Part shown: positions 765 to 21,413 of the stretch, piece by piece
Numbering within the stretch: the first letter of the stretch is position 1
Layout of the letters: the number at the start of each line of letters is the position of its first letter
Source of the DNA: an uncultured Rubritalea sp.
Lineage (GTDB): Bacteria; Verrucomicrobiota; Verrucomicrobiia; Verrucomicrobiales; Akkermansiaceae
DNA: 24,000 nt
Assembly: GCA_937981665.1 (NCBI GenBank)
Contig: CALJOJ010000057.1
Coordinates: forward strand, 3,255-27,254
Direction: 5' to 3'
Made by a program: the position numbers and the translations under genes
Notes under the pieces: generated by a model
What the model saw: only the letters and a program-made list of their open reading frames with translations
What the model was told of the DNA's origin: nothing
Database searches by the model: none

Positions 765-2144
765 TTATTTCTTTTCTAGTTTACGAGCTTTCGCAGAACC
801 TAGTAGGTCCATCGTGTATTCCTCTCTCTGCTCAGTAGGTCCGTTTTCTAAACTCAGTACACCACGTGGGCAGACTGCTGAGCATATTCCACATCCTACG
901 CAAGAAGCACGCTTGATGTCTTGTCCGCGCTGTGCGTACCAGCGTACATCAATTCCCATTTCACAGTAAGTAGAGCAGTTACCACATGAGATACACTGCG
1001 CACCATTAGTAGTGATCCGGAATCTTGATTTAAATTTCTGAATCATCCCGAGCACCGCAGCCATAGGACAGCCAAAGCGGCACCAGACTCGTGAACCTAG
1101 AAGTGGATAAAAACCTACTCCGATGACTCCTGAGAACGTAGCTCCAATGAGGAACCCGTATACTTTTCTTACTGGTAAGGAGGCTCCACCGAGTGTGCCC
1201 CACCAGGCATCCATCCAGACCATCGCGGTCATTATGATTACGAAAATAAGAATACTATATATCATTATGCGCTCTATTTTCCAGGCTGTTCTAGATTTAT
1301 TAGAGAGTTGTCTAAAGCTATCTCCTGCTGTATTTGCAAGTCCACCACAGCCACATACCCATGAGCAATACCAACGCTTTCCGAAGTAATAAGTAAGCAA
1401 AGGCGTAGCAACGAGAGTCATGATGATTCCCCATCCGAAGACGAATCCTGCCATTGATTTACCACTACTTAGAAGCGTCTCGACTTTATCTGGCATCAGC
1501 GCTTTATATTCCAATGGCCAGAAATAGTTTGGTAAGAAATAAGGCTGGTTAAGGCGCTCCATGATGGAAGGAACGATGAAGGCAAATCCAAACTGACAGA
1601 ACATAATAGAGCACGTTCTAACGATTTGATACTTACTATGACGGTATTTTGCCAGAGCCTTAATTCCCATGATGAGAACAGCAATGGTATAACATGCTCC
1701 ATAGACAAACCAAATATCAGCATTGCTATTTCTGAGTAGTTGACTCAATGGATCAAATATCTGAGTGATACTAGGTCTGTATTCAGTACCTGCTTTAGTG
1801 AGTGCAGATTCTTGGTAGAAGAAATAGTAAGCGGTATAGAAACCCGTAATGATGATTCCGAGTAACCAGCCACCAGCACCAACAGCGGTGAAGGTATTTT
1901 TAACCAGATTATTATTATGAATACCCGGAGGACGTTTCAAGTGAGTGCGTAAACTGTAGGTGATGCCACCTGCTACAATACCAAATAACATAGTATAAAA
2001 CACCCAGCTTCCTGTGGCTATTTCTTGTTCGAACAGGGCTAGTAAAAATAACACCAGTCCTATTCCTAAAACTGAAAGGCCTATTCTCTGAATAGTATCG
2101 AGCTTTGGGTCTGGAGGGACGATTGAATGACTTTCTCTTAACAT
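765..2144 (-). CDS. Polytopic membrane 4Fe-4S binding protein (NapH/MauN/NosR-like polyferredoxin)
   Basis: About 8 hydrophobic helices. Two membrane-proximal Cys motifs typical of NapH-type proteins are present (CSWVCGCGG and WCRFGCPMA). The C-terminus carries two ferredoxin motifs, CISCGNCSTYCEMG and CVGCGICSAVCPRG. Confidence 0.85.
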   Translation of the reverse strand: MLRESHSIVPPDPKLDTIQRIGLSVLGIGLVLFLLALFEQEIATGSWVFYTMLFGIVAGGITYSLRTHLKRPPGIHNNNLVKNTFTAVGAGGWLLGIIITGFYTAYYFFYQESALTKAGTEYRPSITQIFDPLSQLLRNSNADIWFVYGACYTIAVLIMGIKALAKYRHSKYQIVRTCSIMFCQFGFAFIVPSIMERLNQPYFLPNYFWPLEYKALMPDKVETLLSSGKSMAGFVFGWGIIMTLVATPLLTYYFGKRWYCSWVCGCGGLANTAGDSFRQLSNKSRTAWKIERIMIYSILIFVIIMTAMVWMDAWWGTLGGASLPVRKVYGFLIGATFSGVIGVGFYPLLGSRVWCRFGCPMAAVLGMIQKFKSRFRITTNGAQCISCGNCSTYCEMGIDVRWYAQRGQDIKRASCVGCGICSAVCPRGVLSLENGPTEQREEYTMDLLGSAKARKLEKK

Positions 2145-2148
2145 AAAA

Positions 2149-3510
2149 TTAGTTGGCTTTGAATAAATTGATCTTGGTAAGTAGGGTGCTAAATAATCCC
2201 TTACCTACGGTCTTTGTGACTTGTTCTGAATTATCATGATTCCAATGCGCAATAATTTCGTCTTCATATTGATTGAAAAATTCTGGGTCGAAGTTCGCTC
2301 CTGCTAGCTGACTGAGAACATCAGTAATTTTAGCCTCATCGCTTAACCACTTTTCCCAGACTTGATGACGATGACGAATCCCAAAGACATTAACCCCTGT
2401 GACAGCTAAATCATTCTCTCTGTAGTTAATGCGGATGGTAATGTGCTTGTCTGGAGCTTTCCAAAAAAACGTCTTTTCTCCATCTTGTGGATCAGGCATT
2501 ACTGTGCCGTAAGTCTGGTATTCGATATCGAAAAACTTCGCTGAGTTCCACCAGATGCCCGGGTTATAGTCTTGTGGATCACCACATATATTAGCAGCAA
2601 CAAATGCGCCCTGAAGTTTACCTACATACCAGACTGCTTCTATCGGTCTACGTCCCTTAGGAGGAGTACGTAACTGAGCACAGTCACCAATACTCCAGAC
2701 GTTTGGAAGGTTTGTTCTAAAATGGTTATCCACTAGGATTCCTCGATCAGTTTCGACCTCGCTACCTTCTTTTATCCAATCAATATTAGGTCTAACTCCG
2801 GCGGTAAGACCAACGATAGAACATTCTATTTTTTCCCCAGCTTTAGTGACGATATGCGAAACTTTGCCATCATCTCCAGCATGAATGCTATCTAGCTCGT
2901 CACCCATTCTTAAGTCTACATGATGCTCATGGATGTGATCTTCAATCATCATAGCCTCCTCTTCAGGAATAACGCTGCCCCAGAAATTTTTCTCTCGGAC
3001 TAAGAAACTGACACCAATCCCACGAGTGATGAGCATTTCTGCCATCTCTATACCGATCAATCCTCCACCTGCGATTACTGCATGTTTGGCTCCGACAGCA
3101 TTTTTTTCTAGCTCATCAAGATCTTGTTTAGAATAGAGTCCTTGAACACCAGGCAGATCCTGCCCAGGCCAGCCGAACTTGTTAGGAGTGGAACCTACGG
3201 CTAATATGAGATGACTATATCCAAGCTTTTCTCCTCCCTGAAGAATGATGCTATTAGAGTGATGATCTATTTTTTCTACCCAAGCACGCTTAAGGTCTAG
3301 TTTATTTTCTTTCCAGAAATGATCTTCATAAGGCTGAGTGTGTTTAAATTTCATATGCCCCATAAAGATATACATGAGGGCGGTTCTGGAGAAATGGTAG
3401 TCAGTTTCTCCTGAAATGATGAGGATTGGCACTTGGGAATCTAGCTTTCGGACTTCGCGTGCTGCGGTGACTCCGGCTATTCCGTTACCAATGATAATGA
3501 TAGGTTGCAT
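2149..3510 (-). CDS. NAD(P)/FAD-dependent oxidoreductase (pyridine nucleotide-disulfide oxidoreductase fold)
   Basis: N-terminal FAD Rossmann motif IIIIGNGIAGVTAA. Second dinucleotide motif AVIAGGGLIGIEMAE. Motif SIGDCAQ near the FAD-binding C-terminal segment. No redox-active CxxxxC pair is visible. Confidence 0.9.
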   Translation of the reverse strand: MQPIIIIGNGIAGVTAAREVRKLDSQVPILIISGETDYHFSRTALMYIFMGHMKFKHTQPYEDHFWKENKLDLKRAWVEKIDHHSNSIILQGGEKLGYSHLILAVGSTPNKFGWPGQDLPGVQGLYSKQDLDELEKNAVGAKHAVIAGGGLIGIEMAEMLITRGIGVSFLVREKNFWGSVIPEEEAMMIEDHIHEHHVDLRMGDELDSIHAGDDGKVSHIVTKAGEKIECSIVGLTAGVRPNIDWIKEGSEVETDRGILVDNHFRTNLPNVWSIGDCAQLRTPPKGRRPIEAVWYVGKLQGAFVAANICGDPQDYNPGIWWNSAKFFDIEYQTYGTVMPDPQDGEKTFFWKAPDKHITIRINYRENDLAVTGVNVFGIRHRHQVWEKWLSDEAKITDVLSQLAGANFDPEFFNQYEDEIIAHWNHDNSEQVTKTVGKGLFSTLLTKINLFKAN

Positions 3511-3758
3511 AGTTTAGTGATGAAAAAATTTTCAAGATAGATCTATAACAGCCTTCCTTAGTATTAGTAAAGGAAATAAGGATATCTATATGTAAAACTT
3601 AAAGATATCTCATATATGACTCATTATTTTACCTATCGTGATAGTTCTTATTTTAGTTAGCCAAATAGCTAGGTTGAAAATAATTATGAATAAAAAGAGC
3701 GCATTTTTCATCTTAAGAGGTAACAATATTTTACAACATTAATATTCCTATATAAGCG

Positions 3759-4487
3759 ATGAACATTTCAAAACTAACTACATTTTCTACTATCCTAGCT
3801 GGCTTCATTTTCACTCAGGCAAACGCCCAAGACTACACAGCTTATAATGAGCTTCTTAAAAAGTACGCACAGCCTGATGGTGTAGACTACAAGTCATGGG
3901 ATAAGAGCAGTAAAGATCATAAGGCACTAGAAAAAATCCTTAAAGAATGGGCTAAGATCGACGCAAGCAAGCTCCCTCATGCAGACAAAGCGGCCTTTCG
4001 TATCAACCTCTATAATGCTGCGATGGTCGACGTGGCGCTCGATAACTACCCATTAGCCACTGTGACTAAGCTAGGTGATAAGGACTTCGCTATCTTTGAT
4101 GCTAATATTATCAACACCCCAGGTGGAGCTATCAGTCTCAATACACTGGAGAAGAAAACCTTACTTAAAGAATTTCCAGATTCACGCCTCCACTTCGCAG
4201 TGAACTGTGCCAGTGTGAGCTGCCCGCCACTCCGTAATGAAGCATACACAGGAGCTCAACTACAGCAGCAACTTACGGACCAGAGTGTGAAGTTCGCTAA
4301 CAGCCCACATGCAGTACAGGTGAATGGATCTACAGCCCTCTACTCTGAGCTCTTTAACTGGTACGCAGCGGACTTCAAAACCAAGAATCCTGCTACCTAC
4401 CTTAATAATTACAGAACAGCAAAGATCAATACCGCAGCAAAGATAGGATGGATCAAGTATGACTGGAATCTAAACCAGTCTAAATAG
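3759..4487 (+). CDS. Exported DUF547 domain protein
   Basis: N-terminal signal peptide (MNISKLTTFSTILAGFIFTQANA-QD). DUF547 hallmark segments are AAFRINLYNAAMV and RLHFAVNCASVSCPPLRNEAY. Confidence 0.8.
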   Translation: MNISKLTTFSTILAGFIFTQANAQDYTAYNELLKKYAQPDGVDYKSWDKSSKDHKALEKILKEWAKIDASKLPHADKAAFRINLYNAAMVDVALDNYPLATVTKLGDKDFAIFDANIINTPGGAISLNTLEKKTLLKEFPDSRLHFAVNCASVSCPPLRNEAYTGAQLQQQLTDQSVKFANSPHAVQVNGSTALYSELFNWYAADFKTKNPATYLNNYRTAKINTAAKIGWIKYDWNLNQSK

Positions 4488-4531
4488 TCTTGAATAAATA
4501 AATATAACATCGTTTACTTCGCTGTAATTAA

Positions 4532-6037
4532 ATGTTAGTAAATATTCCACTCTTCATCTATGCCTTCTGTAGTGCAGTTCTTATTCTATTCGGGCTGCAT
4601 CACTATTTTATGATCTTTCTCTTTTTTAAGAAGAAAAATGGCATCAAAGAAGATAACCAACGTACTGAAGAAGAAAATGCGATCACGGAGCAAAATGCCC
4701 CTGCAGTGCTATCACAGATCCCGCTCTACAATGAGCCTGCTGTAGCTGAGCGTGTGATCCGTGCTGTAGCTGAGATAGACTATCCGAGGCATCACATCCA
4801 GGTGCTAGATGACTCTACAGATGACTCTACTAAATTAGTAGACAAGGTAGTTTCTGAGCTACAGGAAAAAGGGATATCTATCGAAGTATTGCGCAGAGAA
4901 GGTCGCGCAGGCTTTAAGGCAGGCGCTCTTGACTACGGTCTGAAGAAAAATGATGCACCTTATGTTGCCATCTTTGACAGTGACTTCGTACCACCGAAAA
5001 ATTTTCTAGAACGAACGATCCCGCATTTCTTAACAAACAACAAATACTGCGTGGTGCAAGCCCGCTGGGGTCACCTTAACTCTGAAGAAAATGCCTTTAC
5101 CCGCGCCCAGAGTGTCGGTGTGAACGGGCACTTTGTCATTGAGCAAGTGGCGCGCTCATACAATGGATACTTCCTAAACTTTAACGGAACTGCTGGCATC
5201 TGGTCACGTGAGGCTATCACTGACGCAGGAGGGTGGAATGCGGACACTCTAACAGAAGACTTAGACCTCTCATACAGAGCACAGCTCAAGGGATGGAAAA
5301 TCCACTTCTTGCCTCACCTCGTAGTCCCCGCCGAGCTTCCATCCTTCTACCAAGCTTTCAGATCCCAACAGTTCCGCTGGGCAAAAGGTTCCATGCAGAC
5401 GGCTAAGAAACTTCTGCCCGTAGTATGGAAATCTGGCATCCCTGTTTCTAAGAAAATAGAAGCCTCATTCCACCTCACTCATTACTCTATCCATCTGTGT
5501 ATGTTCCTACAGGCACTCATGGCATTACCTATCATTTTGATCAATAAGAACTCATTTGATTCACAAGTAGTGGCATGGTTCGCGGCTCCGATGGCATTAG
5601 CAATGATAGGCCCGAGCTTACTCTATCTAGTAGCCGAACGTTGGCTGGATTCAGAGAAAGGAACCCTAAATTTTTTCAACCGCTTACCGATGCTTCTACT
5701 AATCGGTTTCGGTATCTGCCTGAGTAACGCAAGAGCATGTGTCGAAGGACTCATCGGCATCAAGTCACCATTTGTTAGAACTCCGAAGAAAGGTGATCAC
5801 CAGTCGATGACTAAATTCATGGATCTAGGTAAGGGAAGTATTATGCCGATACTTGAGATAAGTATGGCGTTGCTCACCCTCGTGACGGCAATTGTTTACT
5901 ATAATAAAGACTCTGCTGCTATCATCCCGTTCTTCCTTATCTACTCCTTTGGATTCGCCATGTTTGGTTACAGAAGCATCACGGGTGGCATAGAAAAAAA
6001 CACTGTTAAAAAAACCGCCAAACGCTTTAAGACTTGA
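4532..6037 (+). CDS. Processive family-2 glycosyltransferase (CslA/BcsA/MgdA-like membrane beta-glycan or glycolipid synthase)
   Basis: One N-terminal TM helix, a GT-A domain with LDDSTDDST, FDSDF and TEDLDLS, and QQFRW (QxxRW) at 5366-5380. Several C-terminal TM helices follow. Confidence 0.85.
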   Translation: MLVNIPLFIYAFCSAVLILFGLHHYFMIFLFFKKKNGIKEDNQRTEEENAITEQNAPAVLSQIPLYNEPAVAERVIRAVAEIDYPRHHIQVLDDSTDDSTKLVDKVVSELQEKGISIEVLRREGRAGFKAGALDYGLKKNDAPYVAIFDSDFVPPKNFLERTIPHFLTNNKYCVVQARWGHLNSEENAFTRAQSVGVNGHFVIEQVARSYNGYFLNFNGTAGIWSREAITDAGGWNADTLTEDLDLSYRAQLKGWKIHFLPHLVVPAELPSFYQAFRSQQFRWAKGSMQTAKKLLPVVWKSGIPVSKKIEASFHLTHYSIHLCMFLQALMALPIILINKNSFDSQVVAWFAAPMALAMIGPSLLYLVAERWLDSEKGTLNFFNRLPMLLLIGFGICLSNARACVEGLIGIKSPFVRTPKKGDHQSMTKFMDLGKGSIMPILEISMALLTLVTAIVYYNKDSAAIIPFFLIYSFGFAMFGYRSITGGIEKNTVKKTAKRFKT

Positions 6038-8052
6038 AGCTAAGAGAAATAGTTTGGCTTGTTCTCGCTGTAATCATAGCTGTGCTATGCTACTGCTATG
6101 CATCTTACACGCCAGATTTTGATAGCTATGGAACTCCACGAGTTATCCTAGGAGTGCTTATAGGAATAGTAGGCTTGGCGATGGTCTTCATCTTCCCTAA
6201 TGTTTCTAACAAGAAGGCAATCATTCTCATTCTAGCCATCGCGGCGATCACTCGTTTAGCTATTTTCCCCACTGGAGCATCAGACGATGTGAACCGTTAT
6301 CTCTGGGAAGGAAATCTCTATTCTCAAGGTATCAGCCCGTATAAAAATGTAGCTGAGCATAAGTCCTATATTCCCTATCGTGATCAGTTCTATGAGGAAA
6401 TGAACCATAAGGATAAGCCCACTGCTTACCCTCCATTCGCTCTACATTGCTTTAGTATGATCAATAAAATCGGCTATAACCCGAGCAGTTATAAGATCGT
6501 ATTCCTGCTGTTAGACTTACTGGTTATCGCTACCATTTTGGCATTATTACGCCACTATCATCGGCCTATTCAATGGTCACTACTTTATGCGTTGAGCCCT
6601 ATTTCGTTATTATCTTTTGCTGCTGAAGGTCACTTTGATGTGGTGATGGTTCTATTTCTAACCGCTTCTATTTTATGTATGACTAAGCGATGGATCATCC
6701 CGTGCGGTATCGCTGTGGGGCTCGCCATTTCTGTAAAAGTCATGGCCGCTGTGGTCGCGCCTATCATTCTTTTGAAGACAGGTTGGAGAGGGATCATCGT
6801 AGGCATTATTGTCAGCCTCCTGCCACTAGCACTCTACTATGATGATAGTTTACAGATGGCTCAGGGTATTCTTAAATTTGGATCTAACAGATTTAATGGC
6901 CCGGCTAATCAATTTTTTGTACAGGCCCTTGGCTTCTCTACAGAGTATGCGGGGGCTCTCTGTAAAGTTCTCTTCTTTACCTCATGGGGTATAGGATTCT
7001 GGCTCTGCATTAAGCATAAATTCTGGGTAAGTATCAACCTCTGTCTGGGAAGCCTTATCTTCTTCTCCCCTATTATTCACTTCTGGTATCTCTCATGGTT
7101 ACTGCCATTCATTGCTCTTCGTCCGTCACTGCCGTGGATCACCATGTCCATCACCATGCCCCTCTACTTTACTGTGTGGACGCAGTTTGAAAACACTGGT
7201 GAATGGGCTATGCCTGTCTGGGCGCGCTGGCTATTCTGGACACCATTTATCCTCGCCTGCATCATGCATCTTCCACGTCACGTGATCTCCATGTTCTATG
7301 CCATCACCCGACCTACATCTAACAGAAAAGAAAATGAGAGGTTACATTGGTCAGTAATCATCCCTACGCTAAGCATCGATGTTAGACTCAGAGAACTCAT
7401 TCTAAAACTAGAGAAACAGAGCATAGTGCTGGACGAAATAGTCATCGTGTATTCTTCTGATGAAGACGTGAGCGATGAGTTAAAATCCGAGTATTTTCAT
7501 ATCAAAATGATCCATTCTCCTAGAGGGCGAGGGCTACAAATCAAGACGGGTGTGGAAGCTGCGCAGATGGACTGGTGCCTTATTCTCCATGCAGACAACC
7601 AGCTACAACTAGACACATTCAGTAAGCTTAATGCAGCTATCCAGGTGAATGCCGACATCGTAGGCGGCAGCCTCGGTCAGCGCTTCGACCGTCACGCTCC
7701 AGGGCTACTACTTATAGAGAGCATGAATGACTTCCGAGCCAGTTTACTACAAACTAGCTTTGGGGATCAGAACCAGTTTTTACATCGCGAGACGGCGATT
7801 AGCAATAACGTCCTCACCGATCAGCCCTTGATGGAAGACATAGAAATGAGCGACAGGCTGAGACTGCAAGGCGACACCTTACATCTCGCCCATGAGAGCA
7901 CAGTATCAGCCGAGAAATGGAAGAAGAAGACGTACTGGACACGCTTCTTCACCATCGTTGGCTTCTATTTTAAATACCGTATACTGTTTTACTCAGCCCG
8001 TAAACGCGCGGACTTGAGCAAGATGTTTTATAAAAAGTATTACCTACGATAA
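6034..8052 (+). CDS. Fusion protein: N-terminal polytopic GT-C-like (DUF2029/PMT/PIG-V-like) membrane domain plus C-terminal TIGR04283-like GT2 domain (rSAM/selenodomain-associated transferase 2; arsenosugar-associated glycosyltransferase)
   Basis: Residues 1-430 contain more than 10 hydrophobic helices and an acidic loop motif, GASDDVNRYLWEG (starting at 6280), after early TM helices, as in GT-C enzymes. For the C-terminal domain see the separate feature at 7345-8049. The start is TTG at 6034, overlapping the upstream TGA. Confidence 0.75.
   Translation: MKLREIVWLVLAVIIAVLCYCYASYTPDFDSYGTPRVILGVLIGIVGLAMVFIFPNVSNKKAIILILAIAAITRLAIFPTGASDDVNRYLWEGNLYSQGISPYKNVAEHKSYIPYRDQFYEEMNHKDKPTAYPPFALHCFSMINKIGYNPSSYKIVFLLLDLLVIATILALLRHYHRPIQWSLLYALSPISLLSFAAEGHFDVVMVLFLTASILCMTKRWIIPCGIAVGLAISVKVMAAVVAPIILLKTGWRGIIVGIIVSLLPLALYYDDSLQMAQGILKFGSNRFNGPANQFFVQALGFSTEYAGALCKVLFFTSWGIGFWLCIKHKFWVSINLCLGSLIFFSPIIHFWYLSWLLPFIALRPSLPWITMSITMPLYFTVWTQFENTGEWAMPVWARWLFWTPFILACIMHLPRHVISMFYAITRPTSNRKENERLHWSVIIPTLSIDVRLRELILKLEKQSIVLDEIVIVYSSDEDVSDELKSEYFHIKMIHSPRGRGLQIKTGVEAAQMDWCLILHADNQLQLDTFSKLNAAIQVNADIVGGSLGQRFDRHAPGLLLIESMNDFRASLLQTSFGDQNQFLHRETAISNNVLTDQPLMEDIEMSDRLRLQGDTLHLAHESTVSAEKWKKKTYWTRFFTIVGFYFKYRILFYSARKRADLSKMFYKKYYLR
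7345..8049 (+). other. TIGR04283-like GT2 domain inside the 672-aa fusion protein
   Basis: Segment HWSVIIPTL...IVIVYSSDED...SPRGRGLQIKTGVEAAQMDWCLILHADNQL...SFGDQNQFLHRE...PLMEDIEMSDRL...SAEKWKK. It matches my recollection of the family consensus (IIPT.NE, GRa.QmN.Ga, lfLHaDt, yGDQ, lMEDie...Rl). Confidence 0.7.
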
Positions 8053-10610
8053 AGGAATGCGTCTGATGTTACCAGTGAAGTAATGAGAGCTTTCATACTG
8101 CCATCGTTATCGCGGTAAGCTTTATGAGCTGCTTTCAATACCGGAGCGTCATGCAAGGTTTCGTTTCTACCCATCCAGTAGCGGAAGGCGTGGCGGACGA
8201 AGACCTGTTCTACGCGCTCACTCTTGGCTAGCTTGTTGATCATTTCAAACGCATCTTTGACAGGGCCATCTAGTGCGGGATCACCGGAGTCAATGATTCT
8301 GCCGCTAGTGTCCACTGGCTTACCATGCTCAAAGTCGCGAAAAATCCCCATGTGATTATACATCTCAAAGGTGAGGCCTAATGGGTCCATTTTTTCATGG
8401 CAGCTAATACATTGCTTTTCTCGTGTGATACGCATGCGTGAGCGTAGTGTGGTGCCCGGTTCATCTGGAAGCTGAGCATCCACTGTAATAGGAACATCTG
8501 GAATGCCACCACCTAACAGACGCTCGCGCACCCATATGCCACGGTGAATAGCGTGGTTATCCATAGCGTCTGAGTGTGAGACTAGCCAAGATGGAGTGGT
8601 GAGGATGCCGAGACGCTCACCTTTAGGAGCATTGGTAAGAATACGCTCTGCCGGCATCGATCTTAAGCCTAATGTAGGCCTTGTCATGCGGGCATAAATA
8701 GGCTCACCTGTTAAATCAGCATGATTAACTTTTGGCGTTTTTAGAACAGCCAAGTCACGGCGATAGGCCGCTGAGGTATTAGACTTGTTACGTATGTCAA
8801 AGACTTGTTTATAGAGTTCTCTCCACCTCTCGCTGCCTTTACTAGCTCTATTAGCCTCAGTGGTTAGTTTTTTCTTTTCATTTATTAGCTGTTGAGTCCG
8901 TGCGTTGGCTCTGTCATAATTTACATTCCAACTGTCGATTTTTTGTTTCGATAGTTTCGCCTCTTGCTCGGTAAACATCTTACCGTAGAAAACGATATCG
9001 TCTGGTGAAGCGACTACTTTCTGCGTAGTGAGTAGCTGATTGAGTACATCTTTATCTTCCTCAAGAATAAACTCCACGAGACGATCCGTACTGGCAGAAG
9101 CGCCAAACATAGATTTACTAAGTTGTTCAGTATCATGGTTTATACCTGCCTCCTTTAAGGCTTCAGCGTCTTTATCGTTATATCCTGCTAGATCATAGTC
9201 AAAATATTCGCGGAAAAACTGAAGCACACGTGGCTTTCTAAGCGTGTCATCATTTAACATGCGGGTAAGCTCACGCTTTACATCTTCTTTGGTACGCATC
9301 TTACCATTGACAATTGCTTTACGTAATGTGGCATCGGGCTTGATGTAGCTTAGTGCATGGTTCACCGCTAGCCCTAGTTCCCAGTCTTGTAACATCACTC
9401 TACCGTGTTCATCCGTAGTATTTCCTGTACCCAGCTCAGAGCGGAACAGTGCATCTCTATCGAGAAATATCGCAGATAGCCCTACGATTACTCCTTCTTT
9501 CTTACCTAGCTTCGCGATCGTATTTTCGACTAGTTTCATGTACTTACTGGTCTCTGTATCCGTAGGAGGACGGAAGGTGAGCCTCTCAAAGAGGTCAGCC
9601 ACTACATGACGTAACTCTTCTTCTGTATACTCTTTCTCTACATCTTGGAGCAGATGATAAAGTGGGGTTTCTGGTCGGTGAAATTTAGTACTATAAGTGA
9701 GTGATGATGCAAGACCGCGGTCATCTTCTCTCTCTCGTTTGAGCTGGTGTTCCGTGGGATCATCAGTGATCTGATCTGGTGTGCTTGAAATGCTAATAGG
9801 CCCGAATGCAGCATACCTGAGCAGGCGCTGAGCTTTATCTAAGATCTGCATCGTCTCCGCGCTATTCACGCTCGCTTGGTCTGCGTAGTTCTCGATACCA
9901 TGTTGATGCATGGATGACAGCACACTCGGAGTGCTCGTGATAGCGGTCACATAGGCCACGCTACCACCAGACCAGTTGATGATATTATCAAGCCCGTAAT
10001 ATAGCTTCAGCTCCCCTGCATGGTTCACTGGGATAGCATCTCCATGAGTACGATACCCTGGCTTGTTAGGATCGTACTTAGGTTCGGTGTTGATGAGCTC
10101 ATTTAGTCTTGTTAGATGCTCGCTAGGTGTTACTCGCCAGATTCTTCTAGGAGATGCGGTAGGCTCTAACTTTATGTCCTTTGGTAGCTCATTAAAGAGC
10201 AGATCATGATCTACGAAGTTTCCTCGCTTCGCTTTCTGATGATCATGAAATCCTCCTTTATGTTTCATCAAGGTTTCCATGTTAGAAACGATGCCGTGGT
10301 TAAATTTTAGTCGTTCAATAATTTCTGGTTGTTCCTCATCTTTTGGAGGCATTTCCTTCAGAGCTACTTGAGCCCAGATAGACTTCCATTGTTCTGCGTT
10401 GGTCTCATCAAGCTGTCCCAGGTCATCCATGTTGAAACCACCTTTTTTTGAGCCATCTCCATGACAATCAAAACAATAGTTCTCTAGGAAATCGGTAGTG
10501 AAGGCTTGGTAATCTTTGATAGTACTATGCCCAGGGACATAGTTTTCCTGCGCGCTGATCGAGGAGAACGGCGATACCGCTACTATTAAAAATGTGCTGA
10601 TTATTTTCAT
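8040..10610 (-). CDS. DUF1592/DUF1588/DUF1585-family protein (planctomycete-type PSD/PSCyt domains), exported, with two CxxCH motifs
   Basis: Signal peptide MKIISTFLIVAVSPFSSISA-QE. CFDCH at 10461-10475 in the context NYCFDCHGDGSKKGGFNMDD. CISCH at 8397-8411 in the context CISCHEKMDPLGLTFEMYNHMG, the DUF1588 hallmark. It is paired with the upstream DUF1552 gene, as this family typically is. Confidence 0.85.
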   Translation of the reverse strand: MKIISTFLIVAVSPFSSISAQENYVPGHSTIKDYQAFTTDFLENYCFDCHGDGSKKGGFNMDDLGQLDETNAEQWKSIWAQVALKEMPPKDEEQPEIIERLKFNHGIVSNMETLMKHKGGFHDHQKAKRGNFVDHDLLFNELPKDIKLEPTASPRRIWRVTPSEHLTRLNELINTEPKYDPNKPGYRTHGDAIPVNHAGELKLYYGLDNIINWSGGSVAYVTAITSTPSVLSSMHQHGIENYADQASVNSAETMQILDKAQRLLRYAAFGPISISSTPDQITDDPTEHQLKREREDDRGLASSLTYSTKFHRPETPLYHLLQDVEKEYTEEELRHVVADLFERLTFRPPTDTETSKYMKLVENTIAKLGKKEGVIVGLSAIFLDRDALFRSELGTGNTTDEHGRVMLQDWELGLAVNHALSYIKPDATLRKAIVNGKMRTKEDVKRELTRMLNDDTLRKPRVLQFFREYFDYDLAGYNDKDAEALKEAGINHDTEQLSKSMFGASASTDRLVEFILEEDKDVLNQLLTTQKVVASPDDIVFYGKMFTEQEAKLSKQKIDSWNVNYDRANARTQQLINEKKKLTTEANRASKGSERWRELYKQVFDIRNKSNTSAAYRRDLAVLKTPKVNHADLTGEPIYARMTRPTLGLRSMPAERILTNAPKGERLGILTTPSWLVSHSDAMDNHAIHRGIWVRERLLGGGIPDVPITVDAQLPDEPGTTLRSRMRITREKQCISCHEKMDPLGLTFEMYNHMGIFRDFEHGKPVDTSGRIIDSGDPALDGPVKDAFEMINKLAKSERVEQVFVRHAFRYWMGRNETLHDAPVLKAAHKAYRDNDGSMKALITSLVTSDAFLYRR

Positions 10611-10628: not shown

Positions 10629-12035
10629 TTAAGCTAGAACCTCGCGTAGAGGGCCGCTGCTAGCGTCAAATTTCCCTGCAAGACTCTCGGACATGTTATA
10701 TCTTTCAACAGTGTTCTTTCCGCAGCCAGTCATGAGTGAAGCGTAGAGAGAGTTGATAGGTCTACTTCCATCAAGTTTAGTCAGCCTACCGGTTTTAAAG
10801 GCTCCTCCTGGATTCCCTATGAGCATCATCGGCCAGGTTTTTCCTGTGGTGTGTTGCTTGTCTGCATTGTTAGAAGTATAGACGATGAGTGTGTTGTCCA
10901 TCATCGTGCCGCTACCTTCAGGAACACTTTCAAGCTCTTCAATGACCTTAACGAGCATTTCCATATTATAAGCGCGGATTTTATCCCAAATTGGATTTCT
11001 ATACTGCTGCATGTGGCCTAGGTTATGCCCTCGCTGCTGGATACCTAGACCTGTATATGAACCAAAAATTTGACCACGACCAGAAGCCATAGTGAGGACA
11101 TTTGTAGTGCCTGACTTTAGAGTGGAGATACCTAGGTCTAACAAGACATCATGCCAGTCTGTCTCAGACTCTGGAGCTCTGTAGCGGCTGTCCACTGTAG
11201 GGGCAAATTTTCGTAAGTGATCTTCGGCGCTGGCGAGCTTATCACGGAGCGTATTCATGTCTTCGAAGCCATTGATAAACTGATTATATCGTTCTCTATC
11301 TCCAGATGGCAAAGCCTCAGCATTGCCCTGAGCTATTTGATGGATATTACCTAACAACGCGGTCTGCACGTCATGCTGAGTGCGTAAGTCTCCAGTGGCT
11401 ATCCCGCCGTAGAGATGCTTATAGAGATGCTCTGGATTAGAGTGCATGAAGATCGGTTTTCCTGCACCAGAGGCAGAGAGTCGTGCTACGGTTGGCTTGG
11501 CCTTCATTGCTTCTAGAGAGTCCATACCGATGCAGAGATGAGGGAGTAAGCTCGTTGGCATAAGTTGGCTTAGATCATGGTCAATAGTTGAGCCACTAGG
11601 CAGCATGCCATCACCACTACGGTAGCCACCTAGAGCACCAAAAAAGGCGCTGTGCGTGGGGCTTGTGTGTTTGCCGTGCAGGCCTGTGATGATATGGAGC
11701 TTATCTTTGAAAGGGTCTAAGGCTTGGATCGGCTTTGGTAAAACAGCGCCGGCTAGCGAGCCATTATTTCCCGCCATTTTCGTAGGTAGGCAAGTGCGTG
11801 GGTCAAATCCTTGGTTCTGAAGAAAGAATACGACACGTTTAGGTCCACCTATGCTTCCTGGCTGAGCCACTCCCGCCTGAGCAAGCTGAGCTAAGAGTCC
11901 GGAGCTAGCACCAACACCAGCACCGAATAGTGAAGTCTTCGCTGCTGCTCCCAAGCTACCAATCAGCGTTTTCAATGACTCTCTGCGTGTTAGTTCCTTC
12001 ATAAGAATTAATTTAATAAGTGATGATAGCCTCAT
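10629..12035 (-). CDS. DUF1552 domain protein with twin-arginine signal
   Basis: Tat-like [17 protein letters not shown] near the N-terminus. The protein is about 450 aa and sits immediately upstream of the DUF1592 partner with an 18-nt gap. The true start may be the ATG at 12002 ([11 protein letters not shown]), which gives a more standard Tat leader. Confidence 0.85.
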
Positions 12036-12312: not shown

Positions 12313-12969
12313 TTACTCCCAGAGCCTACCACCAAGTACTTCTGCAGCGTGATCCAGGTCTGACTCGGTGTCTACATCACGGAGTGCTTCGAATAGCTTT
12401 AGTGAGTTTCCAGCTGTGCGTAAACGCTTAGCTGACATTTCTAAAACGGTGTCTGTGCTCCACTCGATGTCATGATACATCTCAGGGTGAACAGCTTTTA
12501 CGCCAGCCATAACGTAGCCGCCATCTAAGGCTGGGGTGAATGCTACATTGTGGTCATCAAGAGCTCTGACGGTAGCTTCTATGTGAGCGGGAGTGATGGC
12601 CGGGCAGTCGGTGCCGATAATGAGTGCCTTCTTAACTCCTTCAGTGAAGCTGGCTTCAATGGCGGACTGCATTTTTAAGCCTAAGTCCCCTTCTGCCTGC
12701 CGCTGCCAGTGCGCACTGCCTAGCCATTCCGTGACATCGGCATCTGACCCTCCAGCTACGTGAAACCTTAGCTGGATAGAGTCCAGATGCGGTAGAGTCT
12801 TATCTAACAGATGCTGCACCATGGCACGGTGGAGCTTACATGATGCTTCATTTCCAATGCTGGCGCCGAGCCTGGTCTTCACCTTTCCTGGCTCAGGAAA
12901 TTTTGTCATAATGACGAGGTGTGTCACTTGATTTTTACAAGCTTCGTCACTTATGAAATTTTCTAACAT
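12313..12969 (-). CDS. TIGR04282/DUF2064 family protein (rSAM/selenodomain-associated transferase 1; arsenosugar-associated glycosyltransferase)
   Basis: N-terminal hallmark LVIMTKFPEPGKVKTRLG. Also IGTDCP, and about 200 aa of nucleotide-diphospho-sugar-transferase-like length. It is the last gene of the arsM-arsS-arsC operon, 21 nt after arsC. Confidence 0.8.
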   Translation of the reverse strand: MLENFISDEACKNQVTHLVIMTKFPEPGKVKTRLGASIGNEASCKLHRAMVQHLLDKTLPHLDSIQLRFHVAGGSDADVTEWLGSAHWQRQAEGDLGLKMQSAIEASFTEGVKKALIIGTDCPAITPAHIEATVRALDDHNVAFTPALDGGYVMAGVKAVHPEMYHDIEWSTDTVLEMSAKRLRTAGNSLKLFEALRDVDTESDLDHAAEVLGGRLWE

Positions 12970-12990
12970 TGAGCAATAAAGTCTAACAGT

Positions 12991-13425
12991 TTATTGGTTT
13001 TGATGCGTTAGCTCATCGACATAAAGCTCAAATTTCTCCGATATCTGATCACGAATTCTTCTAAACTCATTTTCCACTTCTTCAGGAGATCCTTCTGCAT
13101 CTGCAGGATCATCAAAGCTCCAGCAGTAGTGATTTTTCTCACCTTTGAAGGTAGGGCAGCAGCCTTCTGCATTATCACAAACGGTGATGACCGTCTCTAC
13201 CTCACCATCGATGAACTCATCGAGATGCTTGCTCTTGTGATCTGAGATATCGATGTTTATTTCTGACATCACCTTCTGTGCTAATGGGTGGACGTAGCCG
13301 GAGGGCTTAGCACCAGCACTCTGCACATCATAGAGGTGACCTACCTTGTGCTTGAGATAGCCTTCTGCCATATGGCTACGGCAGGAATTTCCGGTACAGA
13401 GTACTAGTATCTTTGGTTTATTCAT
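12991..13425 (-). CDS. arsC: Arsenate reductase, LMW-PTP/thioredoxin-coupled type
   Basis: P-loop LCTGNSCRSHMAEG (CX5R). Downstream Cys cluster ITVCDNAEGCCP matches the Cys82/Cys89 region of Staphylococcus/Bacillus ArsC. Length 144 aa. Confidence 0.9.
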   Translation of the reverse strand: MNKPKILVLCTGNSCRSHMAEGYLKHKVGHLYDVQSAGAKPSGYVHPLAQKVMSEINIDISDHKSKHLDEFIDGEVETVITVCDNAEGCCPTFKGEKNHYCWSFDDPADAEGSPEEVENEFRRIRDQISEKFELYVDELTHQNQ

Positions 13426-13438
13426 GATTTGAAAATAT

Positions 13439-14383
13439 TTAACTCACTTTTCCTCCACAGCTACTACCTTTACCAGCAGTACAGCCGAAGCAATGGTTCG
13501 CGGTAATGATGTCTACGTCCTTCATGTCATCTGGAGCTATGTCCCAGAGGTAGAGTGGTTTTTCTTTCTTGAGCTGGTAGTTTAACATCTGGTTAAAGTC
13601 ACAGTCGTAGACTTCACCTTCGTAACCGATGTTTAGCGTGTTTCTACACATCAGGCCTTCTATTGTGGCTGGGTTATAGCTGTTAGAGAGGAGTTCCATG
13701 TAGTCATCGTACTCACCACGCTCCTTGAGATACGCCGTGTAGCGAGTCACTGGGATGTTAGCGAGCGCGAATAAGCGGGTGAATTCTACGCCGTAGCGCT
13801 TCTTAAGTTCCACTTTGTAGTCTTTTTCTAAATCATCCTGATCTGGCGGCAGTACCGCATCAGTAGGATTATAGACTAGTGTGAGAGGAAGCTTAGTTCC
13901 GTAGCCAGCAGCATTTAGCTTCTTCAGCGCACTGATAGACTTCTGGAAAACTCCATCACCACGTTGGCCATCTACATTATCCTCAAGATAACATGGTAGC
14001 GATGCTACGATCTCTACCTCATGCTTAGCCAGGTACTCAGGCAGATAAGCATGCGCCTTAGTCTCGATGATGGTGAGGTTATTACGGTCGATAACATGCG
14101 CACCTACTGATTTAGCCGTCTCCACGAAGTAGCGGAAAAATTCACTAATCTCAGGTGCACCACCGGTGATGTCTACCACCTTAGGCTTATGCTCCTTGAT
14201 CCATGCCCCCACTTTGTGTGCGCACTCCTCGTCCATCATTTCGGTTCTCCAGGGAGAAGCCTCTACGTGGCAATGAGAGCACGTTTGGTTACATTTTCGG
14301 CCTACATTGATCTGTAGAGTGTCGAAGGTTCCTCGCTTGAGCACCTGATCGTGCTCGCGTAGCTTCGCTTGAAAGTTAATCAT
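13439..14383 (-). CDS. arsS: Arsenosugar biosynthesis radical SAM protein ArsS (radical SAM/Cys-rich domain family), all-Cys form
   Basis: Radical SAM motif C31-x3-C35-x2-C38 (GRKCNQTCSHCH). C-terminal Cys-rich tail NHCFGCTAGKGSSCGGKVS. It sits between arsM and arsC with 37-nt and 13-nt gaps. Confidence 0.85.
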   Translation of the reverse strand: MINFQAKLREHDQVLKRGTFDTLQINVGRKCNQTCSHCHVEASPWRTEMMDEECAHKVGAWIKEHKPKVVDITGGAPEISEFFRYFVETAKSVGAHVIDRNNLTIIETKAHAYLPEYLAKHEVEIVASLPCYLEDNVDGQRGDGVFQKSISALKKLNAAGYGTKLPLTLVYNPTDAVLPPDQDDLEKDYKVELKKRYGVEFTRLFALANIPVTRYTAYLKERGEYDDYMELLSNSYNPATIEGLMCRNTLNIGYEGEVYDCDFNQMLNYQLKKEKPLYLWDIAPDDMKDVDIITANHCFGCTAGKGSSCGGKVS

Positions 14384-14420
14384 TATTTTTGTTAGATTAG
14401 GCTGTTAGACCGTTAATATA

Positions 14421-15581
14421 CTAGCAGCATCCATCAGTAGCACAGCAGTCAGAAGCGACTGTTGTGGCTTTATATTCCATGCCCTTTGTCTCTCTTGCAT
14501 GACGTGTCGTGTCACGTGAGCAGTCAAATTCTACAGCTTCTTCGAGTGGTATTTCTGTGCGTGGCGCGATGATCTCAAAATGATCTTTATACGGTGCCTG
14601 CTGGTAGAGATTATATGTCTTATCACATACTGCATAGCTCTGTCCGCGCTTCATCGTGTGGCCATCGTCATCACTGACCTGGCTGAATGGACCTTTGTAC
14701 ATGACTGCCTGATTACGCTCTAGACATGGGCCTTCCTTACCTTTCCAGGCACGGATCGTGACACTGCGGAATTCTATTCCCTCGACAGTCTGCCACGGCT
14801 CAGAATCACGCTTTAAAATTTCAATACCATAGAAACCTGCGTCTTCAAATGCCTTCACGAAGCCTTCTTCGGTGTATGCACCACTGATGCAGCCACTCCA
14901 GAGGTATGGGTCATCTGCTAAGTGCTTAGGGATCTCTTCATCACTGACGATGTCAGAAATGACAGCTCTGCCACCCTTTTTGAGAACACGGAAAAGCTCT
15001 TCGAACATCTGCGCCTTGAGGTCTTCTTCTACGAGATTTAAAACACAGTTAGAGACGACTACGTCTATGCTGTCAGATTCCACGAGTGGTTTCTTCTGGC
15101 TCAGCTCCTTAGTGATGACGTCTAGCTCCATCCAGCTATTAGCATCCTTGATAGGCTTGACTGCTATTTCCTGTTCTAACAGATCAAGGTTTAGCGCGAG
15201 GTCCTGAATACGTCCTTTTCTAAATTCCACATTCGCGTAGCCCACCTTCTCAGCAATGATCGGTGCGTTACGGTTAGCTACTTCAAGCATGTCATCCGTC
15301 ATATCAATGCCGATGACCTTACCTTCCGCACCCACTACCTGAGAGGCAATGAAACAGATCTTACCCGTACCAGAACCGAGATCTAGAACTACATCTCCAG
15401 ATTCCACATACTTTGATGGGTCACCACAGCCGTAATCCTTCTCTATCACTTCACTAGGAATGATCTTTAAGTACTGGGGATCATAATCTACAGGACAGCA
15501 AAGTGCTGGTTCTGCGGCTTCTGCGGCTGCTGCATATCTATCGCGGGTCGCCTCTTCGGACGTTGATATTGTGTCTGACAT
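14421..15581 (-). CDS. arsM: Arsenite S-adenosylmethionine methyltransferase
   Basis: SAM motif VVLDLGSGTGKICF. The ArsM-type conserved cysteines are present: ALCCPVDY, DYGCGDP, VSNCVLNL and WSGCISGA. There is a C-terminal domain ending in the Cys-rich tail SDCCATDGCC. Confidence 0.9.
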   Translation of the reverse strand: MSDTISTSEEATRDRYAAAAEAAEPALCCPVDYDPQYLKIIPSEVIEKDYGCGDPSKYVESGDVVLDLGSGTGKICFIASQVVGAEGKVIGIDMTDDMLEVANRNAPIIAEKVGYANVEFRKGRIQDLALNLDLLEQEIAVKPIKDANSWMELDVITKELSQKKPLVESDSIDVVVSNCVLNLVEEDLKAQMFEELFRVLKKGGRAVISDIVSDEEIPKHLADDPYLWSGCISGAYTEEGFVKAFEDAGFYGIEILKRDSEPWQTVEGIEFRSVTIRAWKGKEGPCLERNQAVMYKGPFSQVSDDDGHTMKRGQSYAVCDKTYNLYQQAPYKDHFEIIAPRTEIPLEEAVEFDCSRDTTRHARETKGMEYKATTVASDCCATDGCC

Positions 15582-17038: not shown

Positions 17039-18169
17039 TTAGAAATTTCTGTTAGGTGATGCAACGCTCGTGATAGTGCGCTCCAGCGTGCTGACAAATT
17101 CTTGGGCTATATCAGTCCATTGGCATTGGAGGATACTCTGGTGAGCTAGTGACTTCATTGTGCTATTGTCCTTATTCTGGATTGCTTTTAGAAGCTTTGA
17201 GCTTAGTTCTGAAATGTCAGCAGGGGGAGCAGTGTAGCCGTTTTCTCCATCAGTGATGAGATTGCCAGCGGCTGCGTAGCTATAGGCTACAGTGATGAGT
17301 CCAGAAGCGAGTGACTCTGTGATGACATTACCAAATGTTTCCGTCTCACTGGCAAAGAACATCACATCTGCGGATGCATAGTACTCAGCTAGTCGCTCAC
17401 CTTTAAGTACTCCAGCCCAGTGGTAAGCATTTGATGAGTATTTAGCTTCCAGGCTTTTCCTCAGTGGACCTTCTCCTACGATGACGGTTTTTATATTCAG
17501 AGAGCTGTCTAAGCTCGCGATGCTCTCTAGCGCAGCTGTTAGATTCTTCTCTTTAGCTATACGCCCTACGATGATGATCACGCAGTCTGCATCATTTACT
17601 CCCCATGAGGCCCTGAGCTCTGAGGATCTTTTCTCTGGGGAGAAGCGCTCTGTGTTGACGCCTCTTCCTATCACACTAAGATTTCTAAATCCCTGCGTAT
17701 GAAGAAGATCATAGGTGTGCTGAGATGGCACGATGGTGGCGTCACAGTAGTTATGGATGGCGCGTAGTATTCCCAGAATAGGGCGCTCGACTTGAGGAAT
17801 GAAATAGCGCTTTAAGTACTGATGAAAATTTGTATGGAAGCCAGCGACTACGGGTATATCTAGGTGGCGAGCCACCAGCATAGCGGAGATACCGAGGAAG
17901 CCTTCTGTGGCTACGTAGATGATATCTGGTCGTTGCTTGTTCCAAATCCCTCGCAACTTAAATGGCCGAGGGTAGCCGATCTTGACATCTTTATAAAAAG
18001 GGAAACGGAAGCCAGAGACGCTCGTTTCATAGTCTGCAGAAGTCTCGCCTGTATGGATCACATGCACGGTGTGTCCAAGCTGCAACATCGAGCGAGTGAG
18101 GCGTTGAAGTGTCAGCGCTGCTCCATTGATGTCAGGAGAATAGGTGTCTGTCACTATGGTTACATTCAT
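17039..18169 (-). CDS. Family-4 glycosyltransferase (GT-B fold, group 1)
   Basis: N-terminus MNVTIVTDTYSPDINGAALTL. Mid motif GFHTNFHQY. C-terminal nucleotide-sugar binding region FFASETETFGNVITESLASGL (EX7E-like). Confidence 0.85.
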   Translation of the reverse strand: MNVTIVTDTYSPDINGAALTLQRLTRSMLQLGHTVHVIHTGETSADYETSVSGFRFPFYKDVKIGYPRPFKLRGIWNKQRPDIIYVATEGFLGISAMLVARHLDIPVVAGFHTNFHQYLKRYFIPQVERPILGILRAIHNYCDATIVPSQHTYDLLHTQGFRNLSVIGRGVNTERFSPEKRSSELRASWGVNDADCVIIIVGRIAKEKNLTAALESIASLDSSLNIKTVIVGEGPLRKSLEAKYSSNAYHWAGVLKGERLAEYYASADVMFFASETETFGNVITESLASGLITVAYSYAAAGNLITDGENGYTAPPADISELSSKLLKAIQNKDNSTMKSLAHQSILQCQWTDIAQEFVSTLERTITSVASPNRNF

Positions 18170-18982: not shown

Positions 18983-19012
18983 CGGTAAGCATAAGCAGGG
19001 AGATAGAAATTT

Positions 19013-19762: not shown

Positions 19763-19783
19763 TGACTAGAAGCATAGTTTCTT

Positions 19784-21408: not shown

Positions 21409-21413
21409 AATAA

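Follow-up and report, generated by a model that had tools for sequence, protein, structure and literature searches.

A window of 24,000 nucleotides from an uncultured Rubritalea species (contig CALJOJ010000057.1 of assembly GCA_937981665.1), the whole stretch of DNA analysed here, contains a group of five genes for glycosyltransferases, a DUF547 protein and a redox pair close to an ars operon; the closest named homologues of its proteins come from Rubritalea and the Akkermansiaceae. Three of the five genes are read from the plus strand and encode the DUF547 protein (3759-4487), a BcsA/CslA-like glycosyltransferase of family GT2 (4532-6037), referred to below as the GT2 synthase, and a fusion protein (6034-8052) that joins a GT-C domain (6034-7323) to a TIGR04283-like GT2 domain of GT-A fold (7324-8052). 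An earlier note on this DNA had described them as three co-directional genes separated by a gap of 44 nucleotides and an overlap of four, and the open reading frame (ORF) map agrees: the DUF547 gene runs from an ATG at 3759 to a TAG ending at 4487, the synthase starts with an ATG at 4532, and its TGA (6035-6037) overlaps the TTG start of the fusion gene at 6034 in the tetranucleotide TTGA. Beyond an AT-rich divergent spacer of 248 nucleotides (3511-3758), an FAD/NAD(P)H oxidoreductase, the flavoprotein (2149-3510), and a NapH-like polytopic 4Fe-4S membrane protein, the polyferredoxin (765-2144), are encoded on the minus strand. Judging from the gene arrangement alone, promoters for both directions presumably lie inside this spacer; consensus promoter and terminator scans returned site counts not above those of shuffled sequence. 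The ars operon (12313-15581), likewise on the minus strand, comprises genes for a TIGR04282 (DUF2064) protein (12313-12969), an LMWP ArsC-like arsenate reductase (12991-13425), the radical-SAM enzyme ArsS (13439-14383) and an ArsM-family arsenite methyltransferase (14421-15581).

What kind of proteins do these genes encode? The DUF547 protein matches PF04784 with 71.6 bits against a gathering cut-off of 27. Its cysteine pair, NCASVSCPPL, follows the motif HFAxNCAxxxCP, in which C150, C155 and P156 are invariant across 30 diverse family members, and the pair is kept in all 19 homologues from related loci. The N-terminus, MNISKLTTFSTILAGFIFTQANA followed by QD, resembles a signal peptide, and all 19 locus homologues (19/19) have a signal-like or lipobox hydrophobic N-terminus. 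Of the earlier description as an exported protein with a conserved cysteine pair, the pair thus stands, and export is a prediction. While the AF2 model is of high confidence (pLDDT 91.7), a Foldseek search of the PDB with it returned no solved relative (best E-value 0.48, TM-score below 0.25) and no recognisable thioredoxin-like fold, and a profile search against PDB sequences gave nothing significant; a DinB match to the profile was dismissed as chance (E = 0.09, 15 bits). In plants, DUF547 is found fused to a glutaredoxin domain (PMC13621322). These class IV glutaredoxins (GRX-DEP-DUF547) share with the window the association of a DUF547 domain with a thiol-redox partner, but are eukaryotic, predicted to be cytosolic and likewise uncharacterised, whereas their bacterial counterparts consist of one domain and have a predicted export signal. 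Our literature search found no functional study of DUF547, DUF2064, TIGR04282 or TIGR04283, nor one of arsenosugars together with a glycosyltransferase.

The GT2 synthase matches the Pfam families Glyco_tranf_2_3, Glyco_trans_2_3 and GT21, and its best solved relative is BcsA (78 bits). In the alignment with BcsA (5ej1 / 4hg6), the motifs YNEP, DDxTD, KAG, DxD, FxG(T/S)A, TED and QxxRW all coincide, a complete set of the processive type, and hydropathy predicts six hydrophobic segments, one N-terminal helix and about five C-terminal ones; both lines of evidence bear out the previous assignment as a BcsA/CslA-like GT2 with D,D,D,QxxRW motifs and C-terminal transmembrane helices. As in BcsA and the plant CslA synthases, the catalytic motifs, including TED and QxxRW, are present and transmembrane helices flank the GT-A domain. 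Unlike BcsA, however, the protein has only 501 residues, no PilZ domain and no BcsB partner, and it falls far below the equivalog cut-offs of CelA (108 vs 699), PgaC (103 vs 422) and NodC (19.7 vs 550).

In the fusion protein, the N-terminal domain matches GT87 (PF09594) over residues 132-273 with 35.4 bits against a cut-off of 25, an MptA_B_family domain (PF26314) is precomputed on homologues, and a PF00535 match covers residues 440-553. The GT-C domain is predicted to have about 11-13 transmembrane helices; its first large loop carries an invariant DDxxRYLWEG motif and, from hydropathy and charge, would be external, on the periplasmic side. Invariant residues of this domain are D84, D85, R88, Y89, W91, E92, H200, D202, K235 and HFWY 349-352, with the invariance of D84/D85 read across 12 diverse homologues. 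In an AlphaFold model of the fusion (pLDDT 89.6), the GT-C domain matches yeast ALG3 (9s6r, TM-score 0.62) and PimE (9dm7, TM-score 0.59), each with a probability of 1.00; both are enzymes that depend on mannose linked to dolichyl phosphate (Dol-P) or polyprenyl phosphate. The C-terminal domain is modelled as a GT-A fold with two amphipathic helices rich in basic and aromatic residues (631-650 and 655-670), and its invariant residues are H519, D521, G577-D578-Q579 and M600-E601-D602. Since D84/D85 in the first domain and H519, D521, D578 and E601-D602 in the second are invariant, both domains look catalytically intact, and positive charges after the last transmembrane helix suggest that the GT2 domain is cytoplasmic. 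TIGR04283 is by far the best NCBIfam match of this domain (E = 2e-37; next 3e-3), which also reaches 167 bits against a hidden Markov model (HMM) that we built from 42 stand-alone TIGR04283 proteins. The earlier note had taken TIGR04283 as the only functional handle on the three genes; the family is indeed the closest one, but with 128.7 bits against a curated cut-off of 182 it is a weaker handle than supposed.

The polyferredoxin has at least six hydrophobic helices, CX3CG and CX3CP motifs and two C-terminal ferredoxin-type cysteine clusters, and it matches Fer4_5, Fer4_21 and Fer4_7; against the NapH family TIGR02163 it scores 69 bits, with a cut-off of 213. It shares the Fer4_5-type CX3CP motif, the two ferredoxin-type clusters and the polytopic membrane domain with the NapH/MauN and CcoG polyferredoxins, but its partner, encoded separately or fused to it, is an NAD(P)H flavoprotein instead of NapG or a quinol site. 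The flavoprotein (Pyr_redox_2, 155 bits) is soluble, resembles ferredoxin reductases and CoA-disulfide reductases, stays under the cut-off of each of its best NCBIfam matches (PadH, CoADR, NirB N-terminus, NorW), and is presumed to be the electron donor to the polyferredoxin. In the window and in the loci of its two closest relatives (L001, L036), the redox unit consists of two separate, divergently transcribed genes. R. tangerina, Luteolibacter sp. AS25 and Coraliomargarita algicola encode it instead as a single flavoprotein-polyferredoxin fusion of 755-770 residues, whose gene lies directly upstream of that for the GT2 synthase on the same strand. The window polyferredoxin aligns with the C-terminal half of this fused protein (29% identity, 137 bits). 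Orthology of the window flavoprotein to the other half, which is YpdA/TrxR-like, was rejected, as BLASTP finds nothing between them; on sequence comparison, the flavoprotein is replaced by a non-orthologous one with the architecture kept.

On the side of the ars operon, ArsS (TIGR04167, 426 bits vs a cut-off of 300) and the TIGR04282 protein (187.6 vs 134) pass their thresholds; the latter, a member of the usual partner family of TIGR04283, scores 90.6 bits against PDB 3cgx and has a nucleotide-diphospho-sugar-transferase fold. The ArsC-like protein matches LMWPc with 62 bits and TIGR02691 with 129.9 bits, under the cut-off of 174, and carries the CX5R loop CTGNSCRS and downstream cysteine residues. 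The methyltransferase is assigned at the family level, with 353 bits to NF040538 (cut-off 500), 202 to PRK11873 (263) and 145 to AsSugarArsM NF038099 (400): methyltransferase models match two separate stretches of it, it remains under every ArsM subfamily cut-off, and it is nearer to the arsinothricin-type NF040538 than to the arsenosugar-type NF038099. Family scans agree with the previous placement of TIGR04282, ArsS and ArsM on the opposite strand, 4-7 kb away; together with the ArsC-like gene they span 4.3-7.5 kb from the module, with 4.3-5.4 kb between the fusion gene and those for TIGR04282 and ArsS. Neither an ArsR regulator nor an ArsB/Acr3 pump has a Pfam or NCBIfam match among the window ORFs of at least 80 residues, and the order ArsM-ArsS-ArsC-like-TIGR04282 is, by gene content, a biosynthetic rather than an efflux layout. 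NCBIfam/TIGRFAMs describes an arsenosugar set of ArsS TIGR04167, TIGR04282, TIGR04283, TIGR04169, the rhodanese NF045521 and AsSugarArsM NF038099. The window shares ArsS and TIGR04282 with it above the cut-offs, and related loci contain the whole set beside the module genes; the window itself has no protein passing TIGR04283, TIGR04169, NF045521 or NF038099, and DUF547, GT-C, the GT2 synthase and the redox pair stand outside the named set; a search of the accessible literature gave no paper on what they do.

Is the proximity of the two gene groups meaningful? A scan of one genome per GTDB species yielded 80 loci, in which all ORFs were translated and searched with the window proteins. Of these, 34 are non-redundant loci with a full-length fusion, and since many contigs end early, the counts are lower bounds. 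Their hosts belong to several Verrucomicrobiota orders, the Desulfobacterota, the Fibrobacteria and the Kiritimatiellae, and include a metagenome-assembled genome (MAG) labelled 'Proteobacteria'. In 24 of the 34 loci, the gene for the GT2 synthase immediately precedes that for the fusion; the polyferredoxin is present in 15, DUF547 in 12, TIGR04282 and ArsM in 10 each and ArsS in 9. Together with operons of six to eight genes of Bacteroidota type (see below), these counts confirm that the three genes are conserved together. Their delimitation as a module of three proved too narrow, as the divergent flavoprotein and polyferredoxin (765-3510) are conserved with the set across phyla, which brings the module to five genes or more. 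In look-ups of GT2 homologues and of one DUF547 homologue, a flavoprotein/4Fe-4S membrane unit was always in the company of these genes.

In 12 of the 34 loci, at least one of ArsS, ArsM and TIGR04282 lies within 10 kb of the fusion gene, in shuffled gene orders; these loci come from several Verrucomicrobiota orders, the Desulfobacterota and the 'Proteobacteria' MAG, and Bacteroidota-like metagenome contigs behave likewise. Two loci (L010, L094) have the order ArsS-DUF547-flavoprotein/polyferredoxin-fusion-ArsM. A third (L040) runs from ArsS via the polyferredoxin and DUF547 to the GT2 synthase and the fusion, directly followed by a gene that fuses TIGR04282 to TIGR04283. In the 'Proteobacteria' MAG (L019), a single protein of 1163 residues (3937-7425) unites the GT2 synthase, the GT-C domain and the TIGR04283-like GT2 domain in the gene order of the window, which argues that the synthase is physically coupled to the GT-C/GT2 protein; the same locus has an apparent ArsS + ArsM fusion (203-2257), with DUF547 between the two fusions and TIGR04282 after them. 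It is DUF547 that tracks ArsS most tightly across the 34 loci (8/12 vs 1/22, Fisher p = 2e-4). In four loci (L010, L014, L022, L025), the fusion is the sole TIGR04283-like gene detected near TIGR04282. The fused GT2 domains of the relatives score 135-165 bits against the TIGR04283 cut-off of 182, compared with 181-285 bits for stand-alone TIGR04283 neighbours of ArsS or DUF547, and 116-210 bits against the 42-member HMM; their likeness to TIGR04283 is the same in ars-linked and unlinked loci. One Verrucomicrobiales MAG (CAYNLE01, loci L007 and L025) encodes two fusion paralogues, of which the one closest to the window fusion (56% identity) stands alone and the more distant one is grouped with the GT2 synthase, TIGR04282, ArsM, ArsS, DUF547 and an ArsC-like gene.

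These data bear directly on the simplest alternative, that the module genes are unrelated neighbours brought next to the ars operon by chance. In the window, the two groups lie on opposite strands with 4 kb of unrelated genes between them, namely those for a PSCyt/PSD multi-domain protein (DUF1588, DUF1592, DUF1585, planctomycete cytochrome c; minus strand, 8040-10610) and a DUF1552 protein (minus strand, 10629-12035). Neither occurs in L001 or L036, the closest relatives, in which the ars operon abuts the fusion gene, the 3' ends of TIGR04282 and the fusion being 14-18 nucleotides apart; the segment 8040-12035 therefore appears to be an insertion unrelated to the module. Moreover, the two groups are found together again in several phyla, rearranged and with fusions, whereas the unrelated window genes are not: none of PSCyt, DUF1552, KpsS-like, CoaB and IMPase reappears among some 170 related loci, and Lgt does so once. 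Chance adjacency is thus effectively refuted by the neighbourhood data, and we consider it extremely improbable. The earlier proposal of co-occurrence with arsS/arsM holds in that the association, seen in 12 of 34 loci, is far beyond chance; about two thirds of the homologous modules, however, have no ars gene within reach. The earlier reading of an arsenosugar signature set split into a cytoplasmic and a membrane operon would presuppose that the set had once been united.

An independent sample was obtained by anchoring on DUF547, with six homologue look-ups and a metagenome scan, the latter giving 47 loci of at least 5 kb. At least one partner is found near DUF547 in 29 of them: a flavoprotein/Fe-S gene in 17, a small GT2 in 13, a GT-C gene and a rhodanese in 9 each, the GT2 synthase in 8 and a strict ars-pathway gene in 7. 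Of the 37 loci with room for a gene directly downstream of DUF547, 14 have a flavoprotein or DedA gene there. Five loci (L099, L101, L109, L129, L140) share an operon of Bacteroidota type with the order (Crp/Fnr regulator)-rhodanese-DUF547-flavoprotein-polyferredoxin-GT2 synthase-small GT2-unknown-GT-C, which is also seen, minus the rhodanese, in L090, a MAG whose secretion genes are of Bacteroidota type; such operons carry the module parts as six to eight separate genes. Orthologues of the window polyferredoxin (215-730 bits) occur in the Bacteroidota-type operons, and orthologues of the window flavoprotein (440-546 bits) in L089, L090, L099, L101, L109, L129 and L140, in all seven following DUF547 and immediately preceding the polyferredoxin. 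The small GT2 beside GT-C in the Bacteroidota operons resembles AglJ and dolichyl-phosphate hexose transferases.

The closest contact between module and pathway is seen in L089 and L132, where the DUF547 operon is merged with a textbook arsenosugar cluster into one co-directional run that includes TIGR04169, ArsS, NF045521, TIGR04282, purine-nucleoside phosphorylase (PNP), AsSugarArsM (574 bits vs 400), DUF547, a true TIGR04283 (219-224 bits vs 182), the redox pair and the GT2 synthase. In L132, part of the order is ArsM-DUF547-TIGR04283-GT2b-GT2 synthase. The small GT2 adjacent to DUF547 is a true TIGR04283 in L088 and L089 and a borderline one in L092 (181.1 bits), and PNP (342 bits vs 218) lies inside the arsenosugar clusters of L089, L132, L160 and L165. 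L089 also has a gene of an OlsE-like fatty-acid hydroxylase family, a hint of a lipid product (PNP/hydroxylase at 5268-6083, 7113-7997). About 45 other loci of the GTDB scan encode an unfused TIGR04283 (Nitrospira, Methylomirabilota, Gallionellaceae, Halomonas and others); most of these have TIGR04282 as an immediate neighbour, roughly a dozen have ArsS no more than a few kb away, and six have DUF547 next to the gene. A membrane protein of the DedA family, which includes polyprenyl-phosphate transporters, is common beside stand-alone TIGR04283 in Proteobacteria and Methylomirabilota, and in many cases its DedA/TVP38 domain is joined to a class-I disulfide reductase that has a GGDCLNYGCVPSK motif (CxxxxC). 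Such fusions are encoded between ArsS and TIGR04283 in L050, L067, L071, L073, L082 and others, and in Methylomirabilota the DedA-linked reductase is followed by DUF547. From the pairing with the polyferredoxin and the DedA-reductase fusions, it appears that a membrane-anchored flavoprotein partners TIGR04283 in two unrelated architectures.

The recurrence of redox proteins raises the question whether arsenic is central at all. The core could be a periplasmic thiol or sulfur redox system that modifies a lipid-linked sugar or glycan, for instance by thiolation or reduction, with arsenic as one of several substrates or a late recruit. Several findings are in keeping with this: a disulfide-reductase-type flavoprotein is the commonest neighbour of DUF547 (17/47 loci); the redox partner comes in the two unrelated architectures, a Pyr_redox protein with the polyferredoxin and DedA with a class-I pyridine nucleotide-disulfide reductase; the cysteine pair of DUF547 is invariant; and DUF547 is joined to glutaredoxin in plants. 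In addition, the rhodanese that heads DUF547 operons passes NF045521, 'rhoda_near_glyco' (174-188 bits vs 145), has a signal or lipobox N-terminus (e.g. L101 7302-7820; L089 4161-4664), which places it, like DUF547, probably in the periplasm, and carries a CX4R loop of the sulfurtransferase type; with these features, we rejected the idea that it acts as an Acr2/Cdc25-type arsenate reductase in place of the ArsC-like gene. However, the window showed no genes for carrying or mobilising sulfur, DUF547 lacks a recognisable thioredoxin-like fold, and the link to ArsS, ArsM and TIGR04282 would be left needing an explanation. All in all, we regard such a thiol-centred system as quite unlikely.

Our preferred reading, to which we assign a probability of roughly 0.45, is that the five genes belong to a single conserved system in the membrane, which would serve the ArsM/ArsS/TIGR04282 arsenosugar pathway as its membrane arm. 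In the cytoplasm, the ArsC-like protein, ArsM and ArsS would produce DDMAA (5'-deoxy-5'-dimethylarsinoyl-adenosine), as shown for homologues in the literature, where characterised ArsS proteins adenosylate dimethylarsenite to this compound. Its adenine 'can then be removed', according to the literature, before further derivatisation, by enzymes that are not named; given the PNP genes in four ars clusters, the removal might well proceed by phosphorolysis and yield arsenoribose-1-phosphate, which TIGR04282, with its nucleotide-diphospho-sugar-transferase fold, would activate. The cytoplasmic TIGR04283-like GT2 domain would then load the sugar, probably arsenoribose, onto a lipid phosphate, most likely polyprenyl phosphate. 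That a TIGR04283-type GT2 may load a lipid-phosphate carrier is suggested by its kinship to polyprenyl- and dolichyl-phosphate transferases, the amphipathic helices and the company of DedA and GT-C; models for AglJ and for dolichyl-phosphate hexose transferases also pick up TIGR04283 proteins. Once the carrier has been flipped, the GT-C domain, part of the same polypeptide, would pass the sugar to an acceptor on the periplasmic face, most likely a glycan, possibly a glycolipid, polymerised and exported by the BcsA/CslA-like GT2. DUF547 may act in the periplasm as a thiol protein with the flavoprotein and polyferredoxin as its redox partner, or as that of the arsenical group, which is the weakest step of the scheme. 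The arsenic content of the product is pure inference. More tentatively, and rather improbably in our view, the genes may carry out the missing late steps of bacterial arsenosugar or arsenolipid formation in a specific manner, with arsenoribose on a lipid phosphate, its installation by GT-C on the outside, and DUF547 as a periplasmic thiol protein of new fold that handles the organoarsenical and is kept reduced by the flavoprotein and polyferredoxin.

A number of observations weigh against the membrane-arm reading. The GT2 domain of the fusion stays under the TIGR04283 cut-off. No ArsS, ArsM, TIGR04282 or TIGR04169 is in reach in 22 of the 34 fusion loci, nor in 40 of the 47 DUF547 loci, and complete genomes such as those of R. 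tangerina, C. algicola and Luteolibacter sp. AS25 show the module with no ars gene adjacent at the locus. No enrichment with ArsS is seen for the GT2 synthase (p = 0.22), which is absent from some ars-linked loci (L010, L018); moreover, the locus counts are not phylogenetically independent, and the Fisher tests ignore relatedness. In Bacteroidota, the neighbour of GT-C is Dol-P-hexose-transferase-like rather than a TIGR04283, so that the donor there may be an ordinary hexose. No flippase gene was found in the window, with no GtrA- or DedA-type protein among ORFs of at least 80 residues; DedA neighbours are confined to other lineages. Finally, known arsenosugars are small molecules or phospholipids, and we know of no arsenosugar-decorated glycan that has been described.

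Several of these points would be accommodated if the module made an ordinary envelope glycan or a phosphorus-free glycolipid without arsenic, and were found near ars genes only by virtue of a shared response, for example to phosphate limitation, under which arsenate uptake would increase along with membrane remodelling. Besides the many modules without adjacent ars genes, the donor synthase of Dol-P-hexose-transferase type that the Bacteroidota operons possess and the GT2 synthase, which passes the Pfam cut-off of GT21, a lipid glucosyltransferase family, are consistent with such a product. The module of R. tangerina is flanked by a phosphonate-type ABC transporter and by a gene that fuses a metallophosphoesterase to a GT4 (L003 4731-6728) and adjoins DUF547; we take this fusion to resemble the PlcP/Agt lipid-remodelling pair. 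Its GT4 half has a homologue (358 bits) in the window, encoded on the minus strand at 17039-18169, which resembles the GlcNAc-PG synthase and alpha-MGlcDAG synthase models, both under cut-off, and may be a PlcP/Agt-like lipid-remodelling enzyme of phosphate stress. On the other hand, co-regulation alone seldom yields protein fusions or tight operon interleaving of the kind found in L010, L094 and L132 and in the TIGR04282 + TIGR04283 fusion that follows the GT-C fusion in L040; true TIGR04283 genes pair with DUF547, and the rhodanese that leads the operons, NF045521, was named by NCBI for its position near these glycosyltransferases. Co-regulation under phosphate stress is thus a credible explanation that counts against ours, though on balance we think it rather unlikely.

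A KpsS-like gene (plus strand, 15749-17011) adjoins that of ArsM, with 170 bits to Capsule_synth and 214 bits to KpsS, whose cut-off is 600; none of the related loci has it. Housekeeping and regulatory genes on both strands fill 18311-23898, among them those for a PEP-CTERM protein, an ECF sigma factor and an anti-sigma-like FecR/LamG protein (19859-23006). In R. tangerina, the fusion is followed downstream by a comparable trio, with scores of 41-96 bits that make shared synteny doubtful. This synteny is too weak to support the notion that the ars region was inserted relative to R. tangerina, which was dropped. The recurrence of a short-chain dehydrogenase/reductase between the R. tangerina and Nitrospira loci was also dropped, 69-84 bits reflecting generic similarity.

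How does the proposed membrane arm compare with established systems? The three-component periplasmic glycosylation systems GtrA/GtrB/GtrC, ArnC/ArnT and CsbB/GtcA/YfhO likewise combine a cytoplasmic GT2 with a GT-C acting on the outer face, and the window shares with them a GT-C fold like that of enzymes using Dol-P- or polyprenyl-P-linked sugars and a GT2 related to AglJ/Dol-P-hexose transferases. However, here the GT2 and GT-C reside in one polypeptide, without a GtrA-like flippase gene, and are coupled to a BcsA/CslA-like synthase, DUF547 and a flavoprotein/polyferredoxin pair; furthermore, the GT2 belongs to the TIGR04283 lineage rather than to that of GtrB/ArnC, and its use of polyprenyl phosphate is putative. 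The polyprenyl-phosphomannose system of mycobacteria, in which the synthase Ppm1 works with the GT-C mannosyltransferases PimE, MptA and MptB, offers a second parallel, in the GT87/MptA_B families, the PimE-like structure and the logic of a donor synthase with a GT-C user. The window GT-C is, however, only 17% identical to PimE in the structural alignment and comes from a different phylum, and the GT-C of a relative scores 35.8 against MptB NF038066, under the cut-off of 40.

If the more tentative reading above, that of the late steps, is true, DUF547 would gain its first function, and the pathway would be the first to involve lipid-linked arsenosugars. The gene set, consisting of TIGR04282, the TIGR04283-like GT2 fused to GT-C, PNP in some clusters, DUF547, the flavoprotein/Fe-S pair and the BcsA/CslA-like synthase, offers concrete candidates for the steps after DDMAA and for a route of arsenosugars to lipids or the envelope, and it recurs in marine Verrucomicrobiota, Bacteroidota-like and Desulfobacterota genomes. 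Should the arsenic link fail, it would still constitute a widespread operon for envelope glycosylation, hitherto undescribed and unusual in having a redox module built in. It also gives DUF547, a widespread family that occurs in plants as well, its first coherent genomic context.

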